Shown here: positions 8,801-54,442 of the stretch, piece after piece | Layout of the letters: every line of letters starts with the position of its first letter | Numbering within the stretch: the first letter of the stretch is position 1 | Virus record (IMG/VR): IMGVR_UViG_3300014205_005221 | Location: 122,051 to 186,050 of that record | Direction: 5' to 3' (one strand) | Source: a virus | Lineage: Duplodnaviria; Caudoviricetes | DNA length: 64,000 nt | The notes under the pieces: model-generated | Seen by the model: only the letters and a program-made list of their open reading frames with translations | Told to the model about the DNA's origin: nothing | Databases searched by the model: none | Position numbers and translations under genes: made by a program

Positions 8801-9136
8801 TCAGAGTTCTACCCTAGAGGTGTAGCGATACGCCTGACGCATACGAACTTCCACATTCAGTCGAATGTCAATACGCTGCTGCATAGACGGATAAGAATAC
8901 TTACCGCTCATGCCTCTAAAAGTAGTCATCGCAACAGACTGCACCGGAGAGGGGCCCGGAGTAGCGGCCTCCAAATAATTTCCCTTGCGGCTCACGACAG
9001 CGTCGAGCTTCTTACTCCTAGTGACGGCCCAGTCCAAGGCGTCCGCAGCCTCATCAACGCTGACCTGCCACAACACCGCAGCCGCGACCAGTAGGTCACA
9101 GGTGCGGGCAACACGCTCATCTCCCCAACGAGTCAT
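8801..9136 (-). CDS. Hypothetical protein
   Basis: GGGTAG-N9-ATG. Confidence 0.55.
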   Translation of the reverse strand: MTRWGDERVARTCDLLVAAAVLWQVSVDEAADALDWAVTRSKKLDAVVSRKGNYLEAATPGPSPVQSVAMTTFRGMSGKYSYPSMQQRIDIRLNVEVRMRQAYRYTSRVEL

Positions 9137-9145
9137 GTCAGGGTC

Positions 9146-9979
9146 CTACCCGTCCAGCGAGGACCGCGCGTGGCGGAGGATGTACTCGTCGAACGCCGCT
9201 CCGGAAATGTTCATAGTCTCCAACCGACCTAATGTGGTGTTACAGCTGAAACACAGCAGCTGACGAAGACACAAACCGCAGGACTGCCGACCCGGACAAC
9301 ACGCGTGGTCGTGATCCACAGCCAACCGACGATCACCCGGCGAAGCCCCACAAATGGCACAAACCCACCCCTGAGCATCCGCCATACGTTCATAATCTTC
9401 AACAGTAAGTTTATACAAAAACCAAATTCTACTTACCCAAACCTGATCTAAATAAAGCTCACGCTGATCGTCAGTCATAGAGTCATAACGAACTTTACGT
9501 TCAATTTTACGACAAACTCGGCATACGACCTGATATCCAGATTCGACCGTCTGGTCTTCATAAAAACTAAGCACAGGCTTGCTCTCACCACAGGTAAGAC
9601 ACACCCGGACGCCATCGACAACCGGGTTTTCCTGATCCTTGATCGAAGGAAGTACATAGTCCGGACCACGCCACTTCTCCGCCTGCTTGGCGTTGGCCTT
9701 GCGCTGCAGCGCGCGGGCACACGGGAGACAGCGTCCGGTAAGACGCCTACCCTCACCGCGATTCTTCTTCACCAGCTGCGCCAGCTCCATCGGAAGCTTC
9801 TCCCGGCACTGCGTGCAGGTGAACTCCGGATCCTCAGGCGTGAGGCCACGGTTGGGCTGACGCTCAGACGGCGTCTGCTTCATGCCAGGGCGGGGGATAC
9901 CCGGGCGCCCGGACCCGGGACGAGGAACTCCCTTCCCACCCTTAGACGGCGGACTGCCAACAAAAACTGCGTCTTCCAC
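9146..9979 (-). CDS. Endonuclease VII-like (His-Me finger) nuclease with N-terminal Zn fingers, possible homing endonuclease
   Basis: Q..VCAICG...LAVDHDH..C....CG.C.R.LLC..CN..LG. Confidence 0.85.
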   Translation of the reverse strand: MEDAVFVGSPPSKGGKGVPRPGSGRPGIPRPGMKQTPSERQPNRGLTPEDPEFTCTQCREKLPMELAQLVKKNRGEGRRLTGRCLPCARALQRKANAKQAEKWRGPDYVLPSIKDQENPVVDGVRVCLTCGESKPVLSFYEDQTVESGYQVVCRVCRKIERKVRYDSMTDDQRELYLDQVWVSRIWFLYKLTVEDYERMADAQGWVCAICGASPGDRRLAVDHDHACCPGRQSCGLCLRQLLCFSCNTTLGRLETMNISGAAFDEYILRHARSSLDG

Positions 9980-9998
9980 AAAACCTCCAGAAACGACT

Positions 9999-10037
9999 GA
10001 GAGGGCAGAACCCCTTTCACAGGAGTCCTACCCTCTC
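9999..10037 (-). terminator. 17-bp hairpin after the major capsid gene
   Basis: GAGAGGGTAGGACTCCT-GTGAA-AGGGGTTCTGCCCTCTC pairs fully with G-U on the minus strand; contains a GGGTAG motif. Confidence 0.65.
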
Positions 10038-10108
10038 AGAGGCTAGAAGATTTTGCCAGTGTTTTATTTTGGCCTTCTAGATGACCTTCAGATCAACGTT
10101 TCCGCAGG

Positions 10109-11131
10109 TCAGTTGGCGACGCGGGCGACGAGCACCTGCTCGGGGCGATAGATCACCGGGAGGAAGTGTTGTTCGATGAGATACTGGCGACTGGAAGGGT
10201 CTTTCTCCTTCCAGGTCTTAGCAAATCGACCTGTAAAGCCACGAGGGGCCTCATCGTCGGCAGTCGGGCCAAGCATGAACTCCATGGGACGGTTGTCCGA
10301 GAGGTTGGCAAAAATAATCTTGCCGTCACCCAGGAACATCGTCTCATTACCAGCCGCGTCCTCGTAGACCGACTCGGTGGTCGTCCAGTTGAGGCCCATG
10401 AAGCCCGGCATGGTGCCCGACGAGTAGTACTCGTCCTTCATGCGGTCCGACATCAGGCCAGCGGCGTTACCGTCGGTGGCGAAGGCGTCGAAGATCAGCG
10501 ACAGCGTCTGCTCGGTGCAGAACGCCTCGCGGACCGGGACCTGACCATCACGCTGGATCAGGCGCTTCCACGCCCGGATGTCAGCGATGATCTGCGAAGC
10601 CGATGCGCTGGCCCAGAGGGTCGACGCGGTGGGCTTGTGCGAAGCCGAGAACTTGTAGTCGATCGACGCCTGAACGTCGTCGTAGTCGAACACCAGCTGA
10701 CCCTGGAGAGCCTGCCACGCGCAGTACTCCATGAAGTTGTCAAAGCGGGTGTTCAGGTCGTTGATCTCACGGAGAACAGCGGCCTCGGCGTTCTTGGCGG
10801 CAAGCGACCCTGGCTCACGGATCCAGTGGATCGTGGTCGGCTCGAATACCTTCTTCTCGCGAAGGTAGACGAACGCGGCGCTTTCCTGGCTCCGACCGAG
10901 CCGAGGCACGATGTGCGCCTCGGAGTTCGGAACGTTGGGCTTCGCCACGCTCCGGGAACCCTTGATCACGTCCCACTTCGCCACCGGGTAAGGCCACGGC
11001 TGCTTGGAGAGACGGTTGACCAGGATCAGGTTCTCCGGAGCCTTCATCTTCTCGACCACGCCCATAAGCACGGTCGGCTCCAGCAAACTGATGTCCGGCA
11101 ACTCTGTCACCTTTCTCGCTGACGCAGTCAC
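10109..11131 (-). CDS. Major capsid protein (lambda gpE-like HK97 fold)
   Basis: 340 aa after the decoration protein; EYCAWQALQG, IDY and W.EKDPS...P motifs. Confidence 0.88.
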   Translation of the reverse strand: MTASARKVTELPDISLLEPTVLMGVVEKMKAPENLILVNRLSKQPWPYPVAKWDVIKGSRSVAKPNVPNSEAHIVPRLGRSQESAAFVYLREKKVFEPTTIHWIREPGSLAAKNAEAAVLREINDLNTRFDNFMEYCAWQALQGQLVFDYDDVQASIDYKFSASHKPTASTLWASASASQIIADIRAWKRLIQRDGQVPVREAFCTEQTLSLIFDAFATDGNAAGLMSDRMKDEYYSSGTMPGFMGLNWTTTESVYEDAAGNETMFLGDGKIIFANLSDNRPMEFMLGPTADDEAPRGFTGRFAKTWKEKDPSSRQYLIEQHFLPVIYRPEQVLVARVAN

Positions 11132-45746: not shown

Positions 45747-46490
45747 CTAGCGAAGCCCCGGAAGCACCAGCAGCTCAGTGCCACGGGACCACGGTGAACC
45801 GTTACAGTCCAAAGAAGTCACTTCACACACGCCAGCGTCGTGTACAAACGGGTACTTCTCGTACTGATGATAATGACCGTGAAACCACACCTGCGGCTTG
45901 AGCACCCGGGCGATATCCGTCATCACCTGACGGTGCGCCGTGGAGTCTGCATCCGGCTGCAGGCGAAACGGTACCGACGTGGGCGCATCGTGGGTCAGCA
46001 ACACCTCGGTACGACCCAGAGCACGCGCAGCAGCCGCCTCAGCGGGTGTGAGCGCCTCCTGAGGCCACCAGGACTCCCCCGGCACCCGCCAGTGCTTGTC
46101 GATCGACGTAGCACCGCCCACAGCCGCGAAACGATGACCCGCCCACGTCCACGCACTCACCTTGCCGGTGTAGAAGATGCGCGGCCGAAACGGGATGTGG
46201 CCCTCCGGAGACACCGTGTTCGACTTTCGCGCTGTCAACAGCTCAAGCTTATCAAAATCCTCGTGATTGCCCGGAAGAAAGTGAAGATCGATGTTAGCTC
46301 GATCGAGCAGACGGTTCATCTTGTCCAGTGTGCGCCCGTAGTTCGGACGCGGCCAGACAAAACCGAAGTCACCCAGCTGCACGATCTTGGTGGCGTTCGC
46401 GTCGATGGCACGACGCAGCACGACGTCATGGAACCATTCCATGTCGCCGTGAGCGTCTCCTTCCAGAAGAACGTACATTGATTCCGTCAC
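45747..46490 (-). CDS. Metallophosphoesterase
   Basis: GDAHG, QLGDFG, GNHE, THDAP, HGHYH. Confidence 0.92.
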   Translation of the reverse strand: MTESMYVLLEGDAHGDMEWFHDVVLRRAIDANATKIVQLGDFGFVWPRPNYGRTLDKMNRLLDRANIDLHFLPGNHEDFDKLELLTARKSNTVSPEGHIPFRPRIFYTGKVSAWTWAGHRFAAVGGATSIDKHWRVPGESWWPQEALTPAEAAAARALGRTEVLLTHDAPTSVPFRLQPDADSTAHRQVMTDIARVLKPQVWFHGHYHQYEKYPFVHDAGVCEVTSLDCNGSPWSRGTELLVLPGLR

Positions 46491-46532
46491 GAACGGGTTA
46501 TACCCTCACGGACGATAACTAAAATCATATGT

Positions 46533-47189
46533 CTAACCTTCAAGGTCAGTAATGAGCCAGTAATGGTTCTTAGCGCCAAAATCTGTCGCCTTGTAATACG
46601 GGTGCCAGACCTCGCGGAGTGTCGAGTACACCGAGTCCAAATACCCACGAATCTCCGCACCGAGCTGCGCGTTGTGCACCTCGATGTAGAGCGCAGGCTT
46701 GGCACGAGCCAGCACAGACAGCCCGCCCGCGATCACCCTGCCCTCGTGTCCCTCCACGTCGACCTTCACGAAGTCGGGATCACCGAACTCCAGCGCCAGC
46801 GCGTCCAGCGTCGTCGCGGGCACGATACGCGAGTCCAGAATCTCGCCCCAACCACCACCGCCAAGCGAACGATCCAACACCCACTCCTCGCCACCGCCGG
46901 TGGGAGAGGTCAGCTGGCCGGACTTGATGTGATCAGCCTGCACCGCCAGCTCCACGGTGCCCTCGTGATCTGAAACCGCGACGTTGCGCGGGACGATCCC
47001 GGGGACACGCTCCAAACGGGCGTAGGACTCCTCTGCAGGCTCGCAGGAGACGACCTGCGTGAAACGACGGGCCAGCATACCGGCCACACGCCCATTATTA
47101 CCGCCGATGTCAAAAGCCAACTCACCAGAAACAGTGTTCAGGTGCTTCTCGACCTCAGGCGGGTCGAACTCGGCATCACGAATGCTCAT
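46533..47189 (-). CDS. FkbM-family methyltransferase
   Basis: DIGGNNG, EP, TLD..., KVDVEGHE..V..G, IEVH. Confidence 0.9.
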   Translation of the reverse strand: MSIRDAEFDPPEVEKHLNTVSGELAFDIGGNNGRVAGMLARRFTQVVSCEPAEESYARLERVPGIVPRNVAVSDHEGTVELAVQADHIKSGQLTSPTGGGEEWVLDRSLGGGGWGEILDSRIVPATTLDALALEFGDPDFVKVDVEGHEGRVIAGGLSVLARAKPALYIEVHNAQLGAEIRGYLDSVYSTLREVWHPYYKATDFGAKNHYWLITDLEG

Positions 47190-47209
47190 AACCTGGACTA
47201 CGACACAAC

Positions 47210-47243
47210 AAAGCCCCAGAGGCTTGCGCAAGCCTCTGGGGCC
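47210..47243 (-). terminator. Intrinsic terminator
   Basis: GCCCCAGAGGCTT-GCGC-AAGCCTCTGGGGC-TTT. Confidence 0.8.
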
Positions 47244-47391
47244 TTCTCTGAGTACTCATGGTATGCGCCCTCACTGACTGGATGCCAGCGAAGCAAAGTC
47301 ATGTTCCCGATTACCATCACGGTGTCTCAGGAAAAGCCGAGATCAATCCAGATACCCGGGTCAGGCGTGAATCCACAGCACCTGACGTGTG

Positions 47392-48000
47392 TCAGGTTAC
47401 CACCGCTGCTCGTTTACGTCCACGCCATGTCGGAGTCAATGCATGGCAATTACAGCAAAGGAGGCGCAAGTTCTCGAAGCGGTGATCTGTAGACACACCA
47501 TTGATGTGGTCAAGCTCCACCGGAAGGAGCTCGCCCTCCCACTCAGTACGAGAACAGCGCTCACAACGCCGCTCCTTCAATCCTGCAGCAAGCAGACGAT
47601 CGCGGAGGTGAGCAGTTGGATAGGTGGAGTACTCCACCATGATCTCGTTGAGAGGCTTAGGAGCCTTCCCAAAGTTAGCGCCGTTCCATCCCTGACCCAT
47701 CCAGTGAGAAGTGTCCAGTTCCAAGAATGCAATATAGCGCTTCACGGTCTGACGACTACCGGCATGCCGAGGGTCAAAACCCAAGCTCCTGAGCACGTCC
47801 GACATCGAAGCCGCACTGGCTACAGCCTCAGTCAGCTGAGCATCTGTCCAGCTACGCCGATCCCCCGACAGCTTCGTTGACAAGTCATGCTTGTCGAGCC
47901 AATAACGAACAGGACCGGTACTGGCAAAGCCAAAGTGAGTGGCCAACTGAGAAAGAGAAAGCCCCTGGATGACCAGGGGCTCAATCTCGGACTTCAACAC
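47392..48000 (-). CDS. HNH endonuclease with N-terminal HTH, tRNA-array associated
   Basis: CERC...ELDHING...DHRFENLRLLC.NCH. Confidence 0.9.
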   Translation of the reverse strand: MLKSEIEPLVIQGLSLSQLATHFGFASTGPVRYWLDKHDLSTKLSGDRRSWTDAQLTEAVASAASMSDVLRSLGFDPRHAGSRQTVKRYIAFLELDTSHWMGQGWNGANFGKAPKPLNEIMVEYSTYPTAHLRDRLLAAGLKERRCERCSRTEWEGELLPVELDHINGVSTDHRFENLRLLCCNCHALTPTWRGRKRAAVVT

Positions 48001-48001
48001 G

Positions 48002-48074
48002 TGGATGCGGCAGGGGTCGAACCTGCGGCCTTCCCGGCTTCAACGGGACGCTCAACCAACTGAGCTTCACATCC
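48002..48074 (-). tRNA. tRNA-Phe(GAA)
   Basis: Manual cloverleaf, loop TTGAAGC. Confidence 0.9.
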
Positions 48075-48075
48075 G

Positions 48076-48151
48076 TAGCAGTGGTCGGATTTGAACCGAC
48101 GATCTCGGCGTTATGAGCGCCGCGAGGACGACCGAACTCCTCTACACTGCG
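48076..48151 (-). tRNA. tRNA-Met(CAT), 1:72 mismatch
   Basis: Loop CTCATAA. Confidence 0.85.
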
Positions 48152-48241
48152 ATGCAGGTACCGCCACCGTCCAGGCCCACAAGGTGGTCCATGGTCGAGG
48201 CTGAGCGGTACCGCGTTGCAAGACCAAGTCTCTGGTCTCCG

Positions 48242-48315
48242 TGGCGGTGGCAGGATTCGAACCTGCGTCCTCAGGATTATGAGCCCTGCGAGCTACCGAG
48301 CTGCTCCACACCGCT
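48242..48315 (-). tRNA. tRNA-fMet-like (CAT)
   Basis: A1:C72 mismatch, GGG in the anticodon stem. Confidence 0.85.
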
Positions 48316-48317
48316 AG

Positions 48318-48392
48318 CGATCCTGAAGGGATTTGAACCCTCGACCTTCTCCGTGACAGGGAGACGAGCACTCCAAGCTGCTCCACAGGACC
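48318..48392 (-). tRNA. tRNA-Asp(GTC)
   Basis: Loop CTGTCAC. Confidence 0.9.
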
Positions 48393-48482
48393 AAGATTTT
48401 TAAGTTGTAGGGTTAACGGAATCGAACCGCGTACACAGCTGCCTCGTGTGAGGGCCGTGCAATATCTCACCAGAGACCCACG

Positions 48483-48557
48483 TACCCCCAGTCGGGCTCG
48501 AACCGACGATCTCCGGACTGAAAAACCGGCGAGCTTTGCCGACAGCTCCATAGGGGC
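48483..48557 (-). tRNA. tRNA-Glu(TTC)
   Basis: Loop TTTTCAG; U-U at the stem base. Confidence 0.75.
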
Positions 48558-48606
48558 TTGCTGAGTTAGTTATACCCAGTCACTAAACGTTCCGCAACCG
48601 AATTTG

Positions 48607-48689
48607 AGACATCGGAGGGATTCGAACCCTAGCGGTAGCCCGCTGTCAGTTTTGCAGACTGACCCCACCTGCCCGGTAGAACCGATGCC
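48607..48689 (-). tRNA. tRNA-Cys(GCA), non-canonical (8/4 fold, long variable arm)
   Basis: Loop CTGCAAA, U73, variable arm AGCGG-GCTA-CCGCT. Confidence 0.75.
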
Positions 48690-48792
48690 ATAGGCCAGTA
48701 CGTCACCCACGCTTCCCCGCAGGGGATGGTTTTCGGCAGCAAACAGACCTGGCCACAGCCTGTCCCGAGACCCCATCTAGAAGACGTACTCG

Positions 48793-48876
48793 CGGAAAGC
48801 TACGGAATTGAACCGTCAGGCTTTCACCTGTATACCACGCTTCCAACGTGGTTGCCTCACCGTCGGCAAGCCTTCC
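48793..48876 (-). tRNA. tRNA-Ser(GGA)
   Basis: Loop TTGGAAG, variable arm. Confidence 0.85.
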
Positions 48877-48896
48877 ATAAGTATTTAATTGTTAAG

Positions 48897-48979
48897 CGGA
48901 GGGAGGTGGAGTCGAACCACCAGGCTGTAACCTGTGTAATGGGTTTCAAAGCCATATGCTGCCCGGCAGCACACCCTCC
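48897..48979 (-). tRNA. tRNA-Ser(TGA)
   Basis: Loop TTTGAAA, variable arm, atypical D arm. Confidence 0.75.
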
Positions 48980-49036
48980 AAAAGTGTTCCCGTCTGACCT
49001 TCCCAGACTGCATCCCGTACGCAGATGGAGGAACCG

Positions 49037-49120
49037 CGGAAAGCTACAGAGTCGAACTGTCAGGCTTTCACCTGTATATCGCATTTCGAATGCGATTGCC
49101 TCACCGTCGGCAAGCCTTCC
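49037..49120 (-). tRNA. tRNA-Ser(CGA)
   Basis: Loop TTCGAAA, near copy of Ser(GGA). Confidence 0.85.
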
Positions 49121-49129
49121 ATGTACTAT

Positions 49130-49468
49130 TTAATTAGTGTTGCATCCTTGCTTCAAACTGTCAAGTCGACCCTGAGCGGCACGTGCAGCATCCGCACGAA
49201 CGATAGCCGCCTCGTACTCACGATACCGCTGCTGGACCACGATCTCCGCTGACGCATCCGCAAACCGCGCCCGGACTAACTCCCGGAGGGCAGAACGCTC
49301 TTCCTCATTCGCCGTAGAACGAGAAATAATGGTCTGCAGCAAAGCGGATTGGCAACGCGTAGCTTCTGCTGTTTGACGAGACTGTACAAAAAAAGCTACA
49401 GCGGTAAGAATTGTCAGAACAACAATTGCAATGCCCAGAATACGCCCACTTACAACAGACCAGGACAC
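49130..49468 (-). CDS. Single-TM membrane protein inside the tRNA cluster
   Basis: TM helix plus CQ motif resembling 29416..29865; CGAAGAC upstream at 49499. Confidence 0.7.
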   Translation of the reverse strand: MSWSVVSGRILGIAIVVLTILTAVAFFVQSRQTAEATRCQSALLQTIISRSTANEEERSALRELVRARFADASAEIVVQQRYREYEAAIVRADAARAAQGRLDSLKQGCNTN

Positions 49469-49532
49469 AACCGACGCCTCTCTTTAGACCTCGGTGCGGT
49501 CTTCGGACAGGCGTTGTATTTAGTTGTCAGAG

Positions 49533-49621
49533 CAGAAGCGGTGGGATTCGAACCCACGGAACATCCAACGATGCCCACTTCCTTAGCAGGGAAGCCCCTT
49601 AAACCGCTCAGGCACGCTTCT
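49533..49621 (-). tRNA. tRNA-Ser(GCT)
   Basis: Loop CTGCTAA, long variable arm. Confidence 0.9.
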
Positions 49622-49721
49622 AGGTGACGCAGGGATACAGGAGAAGCGACTCTCCCAAACGCTCAGATCGGCGAGCCTAGGAGACCTCACCAAACGCCCG
49701 GAGCCACCCGGCCCTGCATCG

Positions 49722-49805
49722 TGGGAGATGAGGGATTCGAACCCCCGAAGTGCAAGGACTCCTGATTTACAGTCAGGTGCAGATTACCGCATCTACAAAT
49801 CTCCC
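49722..49805 (-). tRNA. tRNA-Tyr(GTA)
   Basis: Loop CTGTAAA. Confidence 0.85.
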
Positions 49806-49940
49806 ATGTGGTGATGGGGATGTTCTACCCACCGGCAGCAAAACATCCCCACCAACCGAAGCCCTGGAACAACGTGCGCGACATCAGAACGCGACGCGGT
49901 CCTCTCGACTCCACCTGGACGCACTCTCGTGTGTCACAAG

Positions 49941-50231
49941 TTAGCGTGGAGTATGGGAAGACTCAAGCACGAGGAACAGTCTTCGGCTCAGACCCGGAGC
50001 CCGGCGAATTTCCACCTCGGTGAGGTGACCGGTCAACCACGCCCAGAACAGCATGAACAGCACCGGAGCAACCCGACCGTGCCGTGCCTTCGGGTTGATG
50101 CCCAGATACAGCTGTAGAGCCCGTGTAAGCGTAGGAAACCGGCCTGTACGAAACGCGTAGACCTCCAGCGTTACGAACGAACCGAGCGTGACCGCCAGCC
50201 ACGCATCCCACACACGTGTGGAACTCTTCAT
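49941..50231 (-). CDS. Small membrane protein
   Basis: W.AW...F..LE..A....PTLT..L..YLG...WLTGHL; CGAAGTT-N6-ATG. Confidence 0.65.
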   Translation of the reverse strand: MKSSTRVWDAWLAVTLGSFVTLEVYAFRTGRFPTLTRALQLYLGINPKARHGRVAPVLFMLFWAWLTGHLTEVEIRRAPGLSRRLFLVLESSHTPR

Positions 50232-50250
50232 GTCCAGAACTTCGGACCTG

Positions 50251-50323
50251 TAGTGAAGGGTGGAGTCGAACCACCACCTTCTGCTTTATGAGAGCAGTGC
50301 TCTAACCATTGAGCTACTCCACC
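50251..50323 (-). tRNA. tRNA(CAT), elongator Met or Ile2
   Basis: Loop CTCATAA. Confidence 0.85.
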
Positions 50324-50409
50324 AGACGCCCCGTTGGTGTGATCCCGGACGGGACAAGCCGGGCCGCGCAGACAAACAGGTCGTCGTGGCCTATCTGTCT
50401 GCAACCACG

Positions 50410-50483
50410 TAGCGAAGGGGTGAATTGAACACCCGACCTCGGGTTTATGAGACCCGCACTCTCGCCATCTGAGCTACTCCGCT
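50410..50483 (-). tRNA. tRNA(CAT), elongator Met or Ile2
   Basis: Loop CTCATAA. Confidence 0.85.
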
Positions 50484-50574
50484 ATACGCCCCGTTTGTAA
50501 GCCCGGTGGGACATTCCCGGTCGCAGCTAGTCCTCGTCCGGGTTGCGTCGGCTGATAGAGAACCATCACTTACG

Positions 50575-50658
50575 TAACTCAGGTGGGGTTCGAACCCACA
50601 AGCCCCTGCGGGCACCGGATTTTAAGTCCAGCGCGTATGCCAGTTCCGCCACTGAGTC
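50575..50658 (-). tRNA. tRNA-Leu(TAA), bldA-equivalent
   Basis: Loop CTTAAAA, variable arm. Confidence 0.9.
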
Positions 50659-50667
50659 ATATGAAGT

Positions 50668-50744
50668 TGGGGTGACCGACGGGACTCGAACCCGCTTAAC
50701 CGTGGATCACAACCACGGGCCTCGACCACTTCGGCCTCAGTCAC
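50668..50744 (-). tRNA. tRNA-His(GTG)
   Basis: Loop TTGTGAT, C73, encoded CCA. Confidence 0.9.
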
Positions 50745-50746
50745 AG

Positions 50747-50817
50747 CTCCTCCACCTGGGGTCGAACCAAGATACACCGGTTAACAGCCGGGTGCTCTGC
50801 CATTGAGCTATGGAGGA
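50747..50817 (-). tRNA. tRNA-Asn(GTT)
   Basis: Loop CTGTTAA. Confidence 0.9.
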
Positions 50818-50841
50818 ATGTATGTATTTAGTTGTACCGCG

Positions 50842-50915
50842 CTCCCCCGGGAGGAATCGAACCTCCGCACACTGGAACCAAAATCCAGCTGCCATCGCCA
50901 ACGCAGCACAGGGGA
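50842..50915 (-). tRNA. tRNA-Gln(TTG)
   Basis: Loop TTTTGGT. Confidence 0.85.
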
Positions 50916-50930
50916 CCACTCTAACAAACG

Positions 50931-51005
50931 CTGCTCGCCTTGGATTCGAACCAAGAAAAACCCTGAGTCAGAGTCAGGTGGGTCTGCCAATTCCCCCAAC
51001 GAGCA
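50931..51005 (-). tRNA. tRNA-Gln(CTG)
   Basis: Loop CTCTGAC. Confidence 0.9.
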
Positions 51006-51126
51006 TTGATGTCGGACGCCTACCCCGACGATTGTAGATCGTAGTCTACGGCGAGAGTTTATGTCAAAGCCAGTTGAGCGGTTTCGTGCACCAATCGGCA
51101 GCTCTGCACGGCTTTGACTAACTCAG

Positions 51127-51198
51127 CAGGGATGGAGGGATTCGAACCCGTCACGTAGGAGTTTTGGAGACTCCCCGACCCAACCAACGCTCATCCCT
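51127..51198 (-). tRNA. tRNA-Trp(CCA), weak D arm
   Basis: Loop CTCCAAA. Confidence 0.75.
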
Positions 51199-51373
51199 AA
51201 AACCTGACTTCAGCAACCGGGATTTGAACCCGGACCTCCCGCGATGGGCGACTTAACCGCTGTCCTCTGCATCCCGTCAGGCGTGACTATCATACCCACT
51301 AGGTACCTTAGCAGGACTCGCCAGAAGCTGATCAAGTCTTCTGACCGCACCTGTCACCGGTGCGTAGTCACAG

Positions 51374-51445
51374 AGCCTCTTGAGAGAATCGAACTCTCGA
51401 CATCCATCTTACCAAGATGGCATTCTACCACTGAACTAAAGAGGC
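51374..51445 (-). tRNA. tRNA-Thr(GGT)
   Basis: Loop TTGGTAA. Confidence 0.9.
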
Positions 51446-51647
51446 AAACGTCAGGTGCTAGATGGTCGGTCACCTAGCTTTGACAGCGTTTCGGAACCGA
51501 CCCGCACGCTGCTTACACGGCCTGACACCGCAACATGGTGGACACGTTATACCCGCAGTTCCCGCTACGGATAGTCGCTTGGGGCAAGCCCGGGAAAACC
51601 GCCCAACCTACCGCGCTCCTTTAGGAAAGCGGAACGCGCGTGTCCAG

Positions 51648-51718
51648 AGCCTCAGACGGGAATTGAACCCGCGTCGTCAGCATGGCAAGCTGACATGTTA
51701 CCACTACACCACTGAGAC
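51648..51718 (-). tRNA. tRNA-Gly(GCC)
   Basis: Loop TTGCCAT. Confidence 0.9.
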
Positions 51719-51848
51719 AGTGTCTGGGTTAACGGACCAGACGTATCAACCCGTCGGCACAGGCTACCGGATGCATTTGCCGAAAGGGAGCATCAGCCCT
51801 ATAAAAGCCTGACCAGTCCCGGAGGACGATCAGGAGCAATGCCTTGCG

Positions 51849-51921
51849 AGCCCCGAGGGAGGATCGAACTCCCACCGTCTGATTGGAAGTCAGAAATGCA
51901 CAGCCAGTACACCACCGAGGC
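51849..51921 (-). tRNA. tRNA-Gly(TCC)
   Basis: Loop CTTCCAA. Confidence 0.85.
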
Positions 51922-52135
51922 ACATATCCCGGGGAGAACGCTTCATCAGCTTCTCTGAGGCCGAAACCTCTCCACCTCCACGTTCTACCCCGGGCTCGAT
52001 GCGGAAGACCCACATCTGCGTGCTTTCCAAGAGGAACAGCAGATCCCCTACACGCTACGAGCAAATGCCCCTCAAGGCGGACCGCTCAGCGCCCTCTTCC
52101 CACCACGGAAACTTTGCTGAGCTACTGCTGTTTCG

Positions 52136-52207
52136 AGCCACCACGAGGAATCGAACCTCGGACCAGTATATTACAAGTATACCGTTCTACCACTGAACTA
52201 TGATGGC
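52136..52207 (-). tRNA. tRNA-Thr(TGT)
   Basis: Loop CTTGTAA. Confidence 0.9.
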
Positions 52208-52300
52208 GTATGAAGTTGGATTGTCGGGCGGACATGGCTAGAAAACGAACTGATTCGACAAGTCACTTGGCTATCCGGAAGACCCGGAGTCGATACAACG

Positions 52301-52374
52301 TGTCCCTGGAGGGATTCGAACCCCCAACCCCCAGCTCCGGAAGCTGGCGCTCTATCCGATTGAGCTACAAAGAC
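52301..52374 (-). tRNA. tRNA-Arg(CCG)
   Basis: Loop TTCCGGA. Confidence 0.9.
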
Positions 52375-52503
52375 AAAATGCCGGGCACTAACCCTCGTGC
52401 CAGCTTCTCCCTGGGAACGAAACGACCTGCGGTTCGCGACGCGCCTACACAGTCATACCCAATCAGAGATGCCGCCGGAGATGGGGTTCTCCAGTACCGG
52501 CCG

Positions 52504-52576
52504 TGGAAGCTGCGGGTCTCGAACCCGCCACCTCTGCCCTGCCAGAGCAGCGCTCTACCTACTGAGCTAAGCCCCC
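52504..52576 (-). tRNA. tRNA-Ala(GGC)
   Basis: Loop CTGGCAG, G3:U70. Confidence 0.9.
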
Positions 52577-52662
52577 AGATTGGCGGAAGTGAACGCTTTT
52601 CAGCCAGACCCACGGGGATGTTAGAGGTCTGACTCTCATACCCGCGTCGTTCATCTTCCTAG

Positions 52663-52734
52663 TGGACCCTGTCGGATTCGAACCGACATCTAACTGCTTG
52701 CAAAGCAGTCGCTCTCCCATTAAGCTAAGAGCCC
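52663..52734 (-). tRNA. tRNA-Ala(TGC)
   Basis: Loop TTTGCAA, G3:U70. Confidence 0.9.
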
Positions 52735-52787
52735 ATGTGATTGAGTTGTCAAGTCTACCTGTCACCTAGACCTTTGCCTTGCAGACG

Positions 52788-52860
52788 TAGAAGCGGTGGG
52801 ACTCGAACCCACGATTACCTGGGTGTAGGCCAGGCGCCTTAGCCGCTAGACGACGCTTCT
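52788..52860 (-). tRNA. tRNA-Val(TAC)
   Basis: Loop CCTACAC (C33). Confidence 0.8.
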
Positions 52861-52991
52861 ATTCGCCCGGCTACCGGGCCCTCCACGAGTGGTTAGTCCG
52901 AGGTCAGGCCCAGCTCCGGGCAGGTGACCCGCTTCGACCAATCTGCGCACCCCACCATAGGGCCGCCTCGATCAGCCTGCGCTGCTACCAG

Positions 52992-53067
52992 TATCGCGTA
53001 CGGGATTCGAACCCGTGACCTACAGATTGAGAATCTGTCATCCTAGACCAGACTAGACCAACGCGAC
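52992..53067 (-). tRNA. tRNA-Glu(CTC)
   Basis: Loop TTCTCAA. Confidence 0.9.
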
Positions 53068-53084
53068 TTGTTCCAACACAGAGA

Positions 53085-53113
53085 ACCTTACACCAGCAAG
53101 TCCAGCTTGTCAA
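53085..53113 (-). promoter_or_regulatory. Sigma70/HrdB-type promoter of the tRNA cluster
   Basis: TTGACA-N17-TAAGGT. Confidence 0.8.
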
Positions 53114-53154
53114 GCAACTTACCGGATTCAGTTTTTCCCTGTGCTGAGACTGTT

Positions 53155-53505
53155 CTACCCGACCAAGCCCAACTCCGCCAGCGACTTACCCGGCTTGCCC
53201 CACGAAAGATTACTCAGCCGCACGTTCGTGTAGTCACCGTCAGCATACTGAGGAACCTGTCCGTTGCCCACGAACGCCGTCAGAACAGCGCTGGGGATCG
53301 AGACGTACCTGTTTGCGCTACCGCCCCGCGTCAGAGACCGCACCGACCAACCAAGATGGTGCCCGATATACGGGAGGTTGCGCTCCGACGGCTTGACGAA
53401 CTTCTTCTTCAGCGTGTCGTAGAGACGGCCGCGAGTCGAGATGAGATACGAGGGATCGGTAGGAAGCTCGATCCACTCTTCATCCTTGGGGAACAGCTTG
53501 CTCAT
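53155..53505 (-). CDS. NUMOD4/HNH-like protein with degenerate active site
   Basis: EW..LP...YLISTRGR (NUMOD4); AFVG...DGD.TN..LSNL.W lacks the catalytic His. Confidence 0.65.
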   Translation of the reverse strand: MSKLFPKDEEWIELPTDPSYLISTRGRLYDTLKKKFVKPSERNLPYIGHHLGWSVRSLTRGGSANRYVSIPSAVLTAFVGNGQVPQYADGDYTNVRLSNLSWGKPGKSLAELGLVG

Positions 53506-54442
53506 GCCACACTCCTACCCGCAGAACTCTTCTTACGGTGGGGCGGGGGTGTCGAACCCCGATCCGACACCCCCGCCGGGGAAACCACCGGCACTACAGC
53601 ACCCAGCTACCGGAGGCGAGTTCTGATCAACTAACGACAGCCGATCAGAACAAGCAACGGACAAGCTGGCGTGACCCGCGCCACAGAAACTAAGAGACCC
53701 GTAACAGATCACGAATCGTAGGCTCGTCTGCTGCCTGGACAGACGGGACAGCAACTCGCATCGGCGCGAGCACGGTCTTGCGCTTGGCGTCTTCGAGGAT
53801 CAGCATCTCGCGCTGCTCACTCCACGTGCGCCACGTCTTGAGCGGGTACATCACCTGGAACCGGACAAAATCGCACTGTTCGCAGATTCCGTCGCCCAGC
53901 AGTCCGTCCCCCACCGTCCGCAACAAGCGGGTGGTCCCGCACATCGCACACGGACCGGGAACCAAAGATCTATCCATACAAATCGCCTCGTTCGGCGCAG
54001 TCATCGTGCACGACTTCGCCTCTCTCGTCGGGATGTGTCTTGATACGGCAGACCATCTCACCGGGGGAGATCGAGCTTTCACACACATCACAACGACCTT
54101 TGAACTCCGCAGGAAACGGGGACGAGACAACTACGTCCTCAACCAACGGATCCCGGCCGGTCACCTGCCCCAGGCACAGGGCGCACCACGCCGGGTTCAT
54201 TTCGTGACGGCAGTACTCCACGATGGGGAGCTTCGTCTGTAACCGGATACGGGGCCGGTGAAACCGTTACCGAAACACGAAAACGTAAAGACCGATCTGC
54301 TTCGCGCAGCACCTCAACATCGAGAAACCCGTCCTCGACAGAGCCGTTCACAATCACGACCCGAGCCTGATGGCCATCATCGTCGGGATCGGTGTACCCG
54401 GGCAGCCACACTTCCAGCACGTTCAGCGCATGCTCGGCTACC

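Follow-up and report, generated by a model that had tools for sequence, protein, structure and literature searches.

At least seven of the spacers that separate the transfer RNA (tRNA) genes of a large uncultured phage appear to encode distinct, selectively maintained non-coding RNA (ncRNA) modules that would be expressed as parts of the tRNA operon. The array in question occupies positions 48001-53067, on the minus strand, of a 64,000-nucleotide (nt) stretch of virus record IMGVR_UViG_3300014205_005221 (hereafter the window), and comprises 28 tRNA genes in a single orientation, identified with ARAGORN and Rfam. The modules are designated E1 (with domains E1a and E1b), E2, E3, E4, E5, E6a and E6b, with E7 as a weaker case. 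From the sequence comparisons presented here, the probability of this reading is put at roughly 0.5; the RNAs would most likely act in trans, as tRNA mimics or as protein- or RNA-binding small RNAs (sRNAs) that, for example, occupy tRNA-recognising host factors or nucleases. A preliminary description of the window had proposed that tRNA processing releases a library of structured RNAs, about 50-130 nt in size, from these spacers. Maintained non-tRNA folds missed by annotation are indeed present among the tRNAs, but “array” and “library” were too strong as terms, because lineage-specific ones make up about half of the elements listed, and others turn out to be a hairpin resembling a terminator, a promoter, a tRNA that had been missed or small open reading frames (ORFs).

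The window corresponds to positions 122051-186050 of C1, a 186-kb contig and the largest (the next is 49 kb) of a 2.9-Mb metagenome-assembled genome (MAG). C1 carries 40 tRNAs called by ARAGORN together with phage genes, including a clamp loader and HNH endonucleases, and is read as a large, high-GC, uncultured phage binned with a bacterium; the closest cultured phage reaches 35% amino-acid identity in the clamp loader. Relatives were recovered through homologs of an FkbM-type methyltransferase encoded just downstream of the array, followed by contig walking. This yielded three lineages that have diverged from the window lineage (W) and share the order of its tRNAs, namely A (contigs L111 and L103), B (L118) and F (L123), besides three partial 3′ ends; two distant methyltransferase homologs with unrelated genomic contexts (L120 and L122) were dropped. 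Protein-anchored and DNA-pattern scans of IMG/VR gave no close relative, JGI metagenome contigs contributed one 1-kb fragment of a relative only, and matches among INPHARED phages were limited to single tRNAs. A DNA-pattern scan of GTDB genomes was empty, a family-wide DNA search there matched host tRNAs only, and the ORF at 53690-54130, used as a search anchor, retrieved no homologs.

Orthologous tRNAs are merely 54-88% identical between W and lineages A and B, so spacers under no constraint would not be expected to align at all. Spacer lengths are variable, with 92, 5, 85 and 145 nt between tRNA-Arg and tRNA-Thr in the four lineages and 99, 12 and 10 nt between tRNA-Tyr and tRNA-Ser(gct). 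Conserved and lineage-specific spacers were separated by global and local alignment against shuffled sequences, together with blastn. For covariation, a double change denotes a compensatory change at both positions of a pair, and the controls consist of the same alignments with the pairing partners slid; three to four lineages of a single uncultured phage clade were compared, with folds predicted on the alignments that were later counted.

Taken together, the spacers that measure 30 nt or more (21 in all) fold on the minus strand with a mean z-score of -1.87 against dinucleotide shuffles, 48% of them below -2, compared with -0.14 for 44 coding controls of the same window (Mann-Whitney p = 3e-6). 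They fold better on this strand, that of the tRNAs, than on the plus strand (Wilcoxon p = 0.04), and mean z is -2.41 for conserved and -1.26 for non-conserved spacers. The spacers of the relatives are likewise structured (mean z -1.7 to -2.6), and pairwise or local alignment z of the conserved spacers reaches 25. The earlier proposal thus withstands comparison with shuffled controls and the search for covariation across relatives, which is strong for several elements; the minus-strand preference it had read from G-U pairs is borne out, and the terminal-stem complementarity it reported is found in all 11 quoted elements. In Rfam, under both gathering and E-value thresholds, spacers of the window and of the relatives gave tRNA-clan matches only, and no window spacer reached the RF00005 gathering score of 29 bits. 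A direct-repeat search revealed no repeat family among the spacers, only tRNA-to-tRNA similarity and one tandem duplication. The conserved elements lie on the tRNA strand, 3′ of one conserved promoter-like site, and abut tRNA ends, each with its own terminal helix.

E1 (51199-51372, minus strand), located between tRNA-Thr(ggt) and tRNA-Trp, is present in all four lineages (alignment A2). RNAalifold predicts 45 pairs, 28 of which show double changes against 3-10 in the slid controls; the share of paired cells is 93.9%, and 37-44% after sliding. Read from the opposite strand, 17 G-U cells and one invariant U-G pair would turn into mismatches. The preliminary description had placed an element at 51206-51338, boundaries that cut across the conserved fold, which is made up of two domains. 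The 5′ domain, E1a (51282-51372, minus strand), has a closing helix P1 and three hairpins, with an invariant UGAUCA loop in P3 and an apex of GGUACC or GGGCCC in P4; its helices 1-5 are 88-100% paired, each with double changes. The 3′ domain, E1b (51199-51281, minus strand), is tRNA-like, with a canonical T-arm (GGUUCAAAUCC) and a D-like arm. Where a tRNA has its anticodon arm, W, A and F show a short stem whose loop measures 3-5 nt, and in B the loop is CGUGAAG with G33. The acceptor-like stem of 4-6 base pairs (bp) is prolonged by an outer 5-8-bp helix that pairs leader with trailer, and CCA is not encoded. The T-arms of the four lineages read GGTTCAAATCC, GGTTCGAGTCC, GGTTCGAATCC and GGTTCAATTCC. 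The ortholog in B (L118:4001-4073) scores 31.7 bits against the Rfam tRNA model, above threshold, and is called a tRNA by ARAGORN; in W, such a call appears at -ps80 only. A covariance model of E1 (R1) finds exactly one copy per lineage genome and no further one in the contig, the MAG, other regions of the relatives or Gordonia phage Sixama.

E7 (48393-48481, minus strand; the mimic itself at 48406-48481) is a tRNA-like remnant or mimic with a T-arm (GGUUCGAUUCC; GGTTCGATTCC), no normal anticodon arm and an ARAGORN call at -ps80 only. It is conserved with L118:6351-6430 (z = 10.2) and with L017:148-226 of a partial lineage, and is absent from A, C and F; structural support beyond the T-arm is weak. 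A T-arm with a GTTCRANYC loop occurs in E1b and E7, and E1a, E2, E3, E4, E5 and E6 are without one. Both E1b and E7 are described as tRNA mimics unable to decode, which retain the T-arm and have lost a 7-nt anticodon loop, and to judge by their sequences both clearly derive from tRNA genes.

E2 (52861-52990, minus strand), located between tRNA-Glu(ctc) and tRNA-Val, has two domains and a length of about 130 nt and is shared by all four lineages, with pairwise z of 4.8-20.5 and a fold z of -2.67 on the minus against +0.18 on the plus strand. Of its 38 pairs, 13 show double changes (controls 1-4), and 88% of cells are paired against 32-47% after sliding. E3 (51006-51125, minus strand) directly follows tRNA-Trp and is cloverleaf-like, measuring 67 nt in A and B and 86 nt in F. 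Its third hairpin has a conserved GUAGGC loop, and the 3′ end is ACCAA in A and ACCAU in B; pairing stands at 93% against 29-48%, with double changes in 6 of 14 pairs against 0-4. In W the first hairpin is enlarged to 57 nt (51063-51119), so that what had been listed as an element of its own is a W-only expansion of one E3 helix. E4 (49806-49945, minus strand), upstream of tRNA-Tyr, combines a hairpin with an invariant CGCG stem and a UUCUGAUGU loop with a second part, a 19-bp hairpin (49809-49857) whose GCUGCCGGUGGGU loop is conserved. Alignment z is 22-23 against A and F and fold z is -4.2; 38 pairs are predicted, 95.5% of cells are paired, and 7 pairs carry double changes against 0-1 in the slid controls.

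E5 (52577-52661, core 52595-52657, minus strand) is rod-like and occupies the spacer between two tRNA-Ala genes in W and the Arg-Thr spacer in F, where its counterpart, L123:6049-6111, is 83% identical across 64 nt (z = 24.9); 20 pairs are kept, two of them with double changes. E6a (51536-51646, minus strand) is a four-way junction of about 110 nt, with a 6-7-bp closing stem followed by an invariant (C)ACCA. The closing stems differ (GGACACG/CGTGTCC in W, GGGCATA/TGTGCCC in B, CAGAGG/CCTTTG in F) while CACCA is invariant; 13 of 30 pairs have double changes (controls 1-7), and 88% of cells are paired against 34-51%. E6b (51446-51535, minus strand) is a three-way junction in which two hairpin loops are mutually complementary (GUCGGU and ACCGAC). 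Between its two available sequences, W and F, 26 pairs include 7 with double changes and none broken, and the loop complementarity is kept in F (AUCGAC). E6b is absent from A and B, and E6a from A, where the spacer is 49 nt. Four NCCA ends and one ACC end had been reported among the elements; the ACC end (49623-49720) is there, and NCCA ends number only three (49809-49857, 51536-51645 and 52581-52659). Among these, the ACCA of 51536-51645 is the only one kept in relatives, the ACCA of E4 and the GCCA of E5 not being conserved. The accompanying remark that real tRNAs here mostly lack an encoded CCA holds for 27 of the 28 array tRNAs, tRNA-His being the sole carrier. As a side observation, UGAU-containing motifs recur at conserved sites on the minus strand, in the E4 loop (49865-49873, UUCUGAUGU), the E1a P3 loop (51328-51337, CUUGAUCAG) and the stem of the upstream element E0 (53635-53642, UUCUGAUC); this may reflect a shared binding motif or chance.

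Compensatory changes, G-U pairs that fit one strand and loops conserved beyond the tRNAs themselves point to selection on RNA folds. The presence of E5 in a different spacer in F and the absence of E6 from A indicate that the elements are separate modules rather than fixed tRNA leaders. Many neighbouring tRNAs in the same arrays are separated by just 0-14 nt, so structured spacers are not required for tRNA maturation; these short gaps, the presence or absence of an element at the same junction and the change of junction by E5 all count against a function bound to the adjacent tRNA. Under the proposed scheme, the elements would be co-transcribed with the tRNAs and excised by the enzymes that mature their neighbours. 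RNase P would cut at the 5′ end of the tRNA that follows and possibly at acceptor-like stems, and the 3′ end of the preceding tRNA would be processed by RNase Z, RNase E or exonucleases. They would then persist as compact small RNAs like RNAC and RNAD of phage T4, and several of the cloverleaf-shaped elements may have descended from tRNA genes.

RNAC and RNAD are the closest precedent. As in the present array, they are non-tRNA RNA genes inside a phage tRNA cluster, on the strand of the tRNAs, and the T4 pair is transcribed with them; RNAC and RNAD are matured by the tRNA-processing machinery. The two cases differ in that no sequence or Rfam link joins them and in that T4 has two such RNAs, as opposed to at least seven predicted elements here. 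The T4 tRNA region yields two small RNAs of unknown biological role (PMC3014915; northern blot in PMC9697503).

Several considerations weigh against the reading of the spacers as maintained ncRNA modules. Discrete, stable RNAs from the elements are assumed rather than observed, and a role in cis, in folding or processing of the precursor, would yield equal conservation. The covariation counts come from three to four lineages of one clade, with folds taken from the same alignments, and are therefore suggestive, below a test of R-scape grade. About half of the long spacers are lineage-specific and may be functionless, three further pieces (E0 and 51803-51839 as terminators, 53094-53133 as a promoter) look like ordinary signals, and the E1 covariance model finds no copy outside the clade.

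The alternative that survives best, though it is held to be only about half as probable, is that the spacers act in cis on the polycistronic precursor, as folding insulators, as guides for cleavage by RNase P, E or III, or as blocks to 3′ exonucleases, and are degraded once the tRNAs are released. The elements abut tRNA ends, E6a with its stem and ACCA has a shape recognised by RNase P, E1b and E7 retain the tRNA elbow read by processing enzymes, and structured spacers are general to the arrays of all four lineages, even where they cannot be aligned. Against this, closely spaced tRNAs in the same arrays evidently mature without such elements, a junction that holds an element in one lineage has 5-49 nt in another, and E5 has been relocated. 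Invariant loops (UGAUCA, GUAGGC and the complementary loops of E6b) would likewise be unnecessary for insulation. That several elements begin 1-3 nt after a tRNA 3′ end, as had been pointed out, is true but holds for any spacer and hence carries no weight.

A more specific version of a role in trans is doubtful, and ranks below the action in cis. Here the operon would serve as an expression and processing platform for tRNA-derived mimics that titrate or misdirect either host immunity directed at tRNAs (anticodon nucleases, acceptor-end toxins) or factors of tRNA repair and quality control, alongside a near-complete tRNA set and RtcB; E6a would be an acceptor-end decoy, and E1b and E7 elbow decoys. 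The decoy idea, which the preliminary description had raised, is backed circumstantially by the tRNA mimicry of two elements and by an RtcB gene elsewhere on the contig. The latter fits a phage exposed to tRNA cleavage, which is only circumstantial support.

Functionless debris is a still less plausible explanation for the array as a whole. Decaying tRNA pseudogenes, duplication remnants and scars of mobile endonucleases would then be structured simply through their descent from tRNAs. This fits the lineage-specific spacers; 11 spacers have no counterpart in relatives. One representative is 48690-48791 (minus strand), with a terminal 8-bp stem and z below 3 against A, B and F; others on the minus strand are 48152-48240, 49622-49720, 50324-50408, 50484-50573, 52003-52134, 52208-52299 and 52375-52502. 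Among the 11 elements of the preliminary description, five (48698-48790, 49623-49720, 51063-51119, 52003-52100 and 52380-52501) lack a detectable counterpart in any relative. The region 50324-50573 is a tandem duplication of tRNA-Met with its leader (family D19), HNH and PDDEXK ORFs come and go in the arrays, E1b and E7 are of tRNA origin, and some spacers of W correspond in position to genuine tRNAs in B, for instance tRNA-Ala(cgc) between the two Ala genes. The Ala-Ala spacer of W was examined as a decayed copy of that gene and rejected, since it is homologous to E5 of F and its z against B is 0.7-1.0. For the conserved spacers, the debris explanation is already disfavoured: helices have been kept through double substitutions in four lineages, unlike neutral decay, and the hairpin at 51803-51839 and several loops are conserved beyond the tRNAs. 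The comparison with tRNA pseudogenes in general leads to the same division, with E1b and E7 tRNA-derived and some lineage-specific spacers perhaps decaying copies, whereas the conserved elements keep their helices by compensatory change and have non-tRNA loops, unlike pseudogenes. Within the duplicated region, the two tRNA(cat) genes (window 50250-50573, minus strand) share a leader of about 15 nt, and the spacers upstream of them are conserved in no relative.

It is highly improbable that the conserved spacers are DNA-level signals (promoters, operators, terminators, or target sites for recombination or endonucleases) and not RNAs, even if some neighbouring pieces look to be of this kind. A promoter-like site (53094-53133, minus strand), read from the sequence as TTGACA-17-TAAGGT, precedes the first tRNA gene of the array, Glu(ctc), by about 20 nt. 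Lineages A and F share it at 82-85% identity, F in two copies, and a 93% identical copy stands upstream of another tRNA cluster of the contig (C1:10426-10454). Upstream of this promoter, E0 (53537-53665, minus strand) contains conserved hairpins and a final 17-bp G+C-rich stem with no clear T-run. Its local alignment z is 6-17 against A, B and F, its alifold structure has 27 pairs, 9 with double changes, and it is probably the terminator of an upstream operon. The hairpin at 51803-51839 (minus strand), an 11-bp stem that contains a bulged U and is capped by a UCCG loop, is nearly invariant, at 90-92% identity in A and B (z 15-18), a conservation above that of the tRNAs. It is followed by CTTTTAT in W, ATTTTT in A and GCATTC in B, and looks like a terminator- or attenuator-like hairpin, or one that confers stability. 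Palindromic hexamers in E1a (TGATCA, GGTACC/GGGCCC) and a TTGACA-18-TACGAT match in the W expansion of E3 could also be taken as DNA signals. However, multi-helix folds with G-U pairs on one strand are unexpected for protein-binding DNA sites, fold z is strand-asymmetric, and a scan for consensus promoters and terminators gave no enrichment over shuffles and listed neither E0 nor 51803-51839.

The weakest explanation, with barely any probability left to it, is that the spacers are self-cleaving ribozymes which trim tRNA trailers in the manner of theta ribozymes (minimal HDV-like forms, HDV being hepatitis delta virus), structured RNAs located directly after phage tRNA genes with a proposed role in tRNA 3′ maturation (PMC10879173). 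The location after tRNAs, this precedent and the RtcB of the contig, an enzyme joining 2′,3′-cyclic phosphate and 5′-OH ends that could handle the products, are set against four observations: no hammerhead, twister, pistol, hatchet or HDV-like match up to E = 10 in the window and 0.5 in the relatives (no dedicated minimal-HDV descriptor search was run), a sole family match to CPEB3 at chance level and on the wrong strand, covariation-supported folds that are plain multi-helix junctions and not nested double pseudoknots, and a different host range and phage group, all reported theta ribozymes coming from gut phages of Bacteroidota and Bacillota (PMC10879173). The ribozyme and antitoxin identities that had been suggested for the spacers find no support in Rfam, which gives no such family, or any other, in the window or its relatives.

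As regards tRNA-like RNAs outside phage T4, tmRNA (transfer-messenger RNA), viral 3′ tRNA-like structures and mascRNA combine an acceptor-like stem and a T-arm with no working anticodon arm, and are read by tRNA enzymes. E1b differs from them in its acceptor-like stem prolonged by a second helix and in lacking an encoded CCA. ARAGORN found no tmRNA, and the best Rfam match to one in the window reaches 12.8 bits at 49812-49850, within E4 and away from E1b and E7, against a gathering score of 47. The YrlA family of Y RNAs (RF02553), partners of Ro60/TROVE proteins, also has a non-decoding tRNA-like domain with T-arm and D-arm and occurs in actinophages beside tRNA clusters. YrlA runs from T arm through an acceptor-like loop to D arm and ends at the anticodon position (PMC4201824), whereas in E1b and E7 the arms follow one another as in an ordinary tRNA and both ends emerge at the acceptor stem. 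RF02553 does not match E1 or E7, and weak YrlA matches fall on real tRNA junctions; neither the Pfam profile nor tblastn with a relative's protein found a TROVE gene in the genome (MAG 80% complete, phage contig 186 kb). A Y-RNA identity for E1b was thus rejected on the absence of a TROVE gene, the lack of an RF02553 match and the wrong arm order. One close relative encodes TROVE (Ro60), with tRNA-like elements and an RNA resembling YrlA (36 bits) ahead of the gene (L116:7737-7849 and 8831-10480; L124:6743-8374); in Gordonia phage Sixama, a Ro-like gene heads the tRNA array.

Phage tRNA arrays are usually annotated as tRNAs separated by empty gaps, and in the present array the gaps hold folds that appear to be under selection and match no Rfam family. 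If the elements accumulate as RNAs, the half-century-old puzzle of T4 RNAC and RNAD would reach a distant phage group, new cases would be added of tRNA genes turned into non-decoding mimics, and concrete candidates would become available for RNA-based counter-defence against tRNA-targeting immunity.

Within the tRNA array, 27 genes are called by default ARAGORN. The 28th, tRNA-Trp(cca) (51126-51198, minus strand), emerges under relaxed settings only and from synteny: it lies below the Rfam gathering score, with 25.6 bits on the tRNA-Sec model only, and its orthologs in A, B and F stand at the equivalent position, are called Trp and show 73-84% identity. With this gene counted, the 41 tRNAs of the contig cover all 20 amino acids. 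tRNA-Cys(gca) (window 48606-48689, minus strand; L118:5942-6026; L123:8733-8817) has a long variable arm, and its best-scoring model is tRNA-Sec. The window gene, at 43 bits, stays under that model's gathering score (47 bits), which both relatives exceed (58 and 52 bits, respectively). Possibly this tRNA belongs to the 8/4-type “allo” tRNAs described in PMC5389517. A 133-nt sequence in relative F (L123:7696-7828) scores 46 bits as a tRNA with no ARAGORN call, and is possibly a tRNA interrupted by an insertion or intron.

An HNH endonuclease ORF (47392-48000, minus strand) marks the 3′ end of the array, and further ORFs lie in or beside it at 53155-53505 (HNH-like, minus strand), 49941-50231 and 49130-49468, the last two matching no family. 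The array ORFs of W have no homolog in the relatives, which hold other ORFs at other sites of the array. The junctions that hold small ORFs and ORFs of endonuclease type, which is HNH in W and PDDEXK_5 in relative A (L103:691-1083), differ by lineage, which suggests that mobile genes move through the array. Directly downstream of the array (window 45747-47231, minus strand) are encoded a calcineurin-like metallophosphoesterase and the FkbM-type methyltransferase. The position of the methyltransferase is kept in all recovered relatives and that of the phosphoesterase in several (L017, L118, L119 and L123); as a speculation, the two could form a pair for healing or modification of RNA ends. The RtcB RNA ligase gene lies outside the window (C1:57684-59738, minus strand) as a single open frame of 747 amino acids, in which the match to profile positions 1-50 and that to 48-426 stand about 900 nt apart, an intein-like arrangement.

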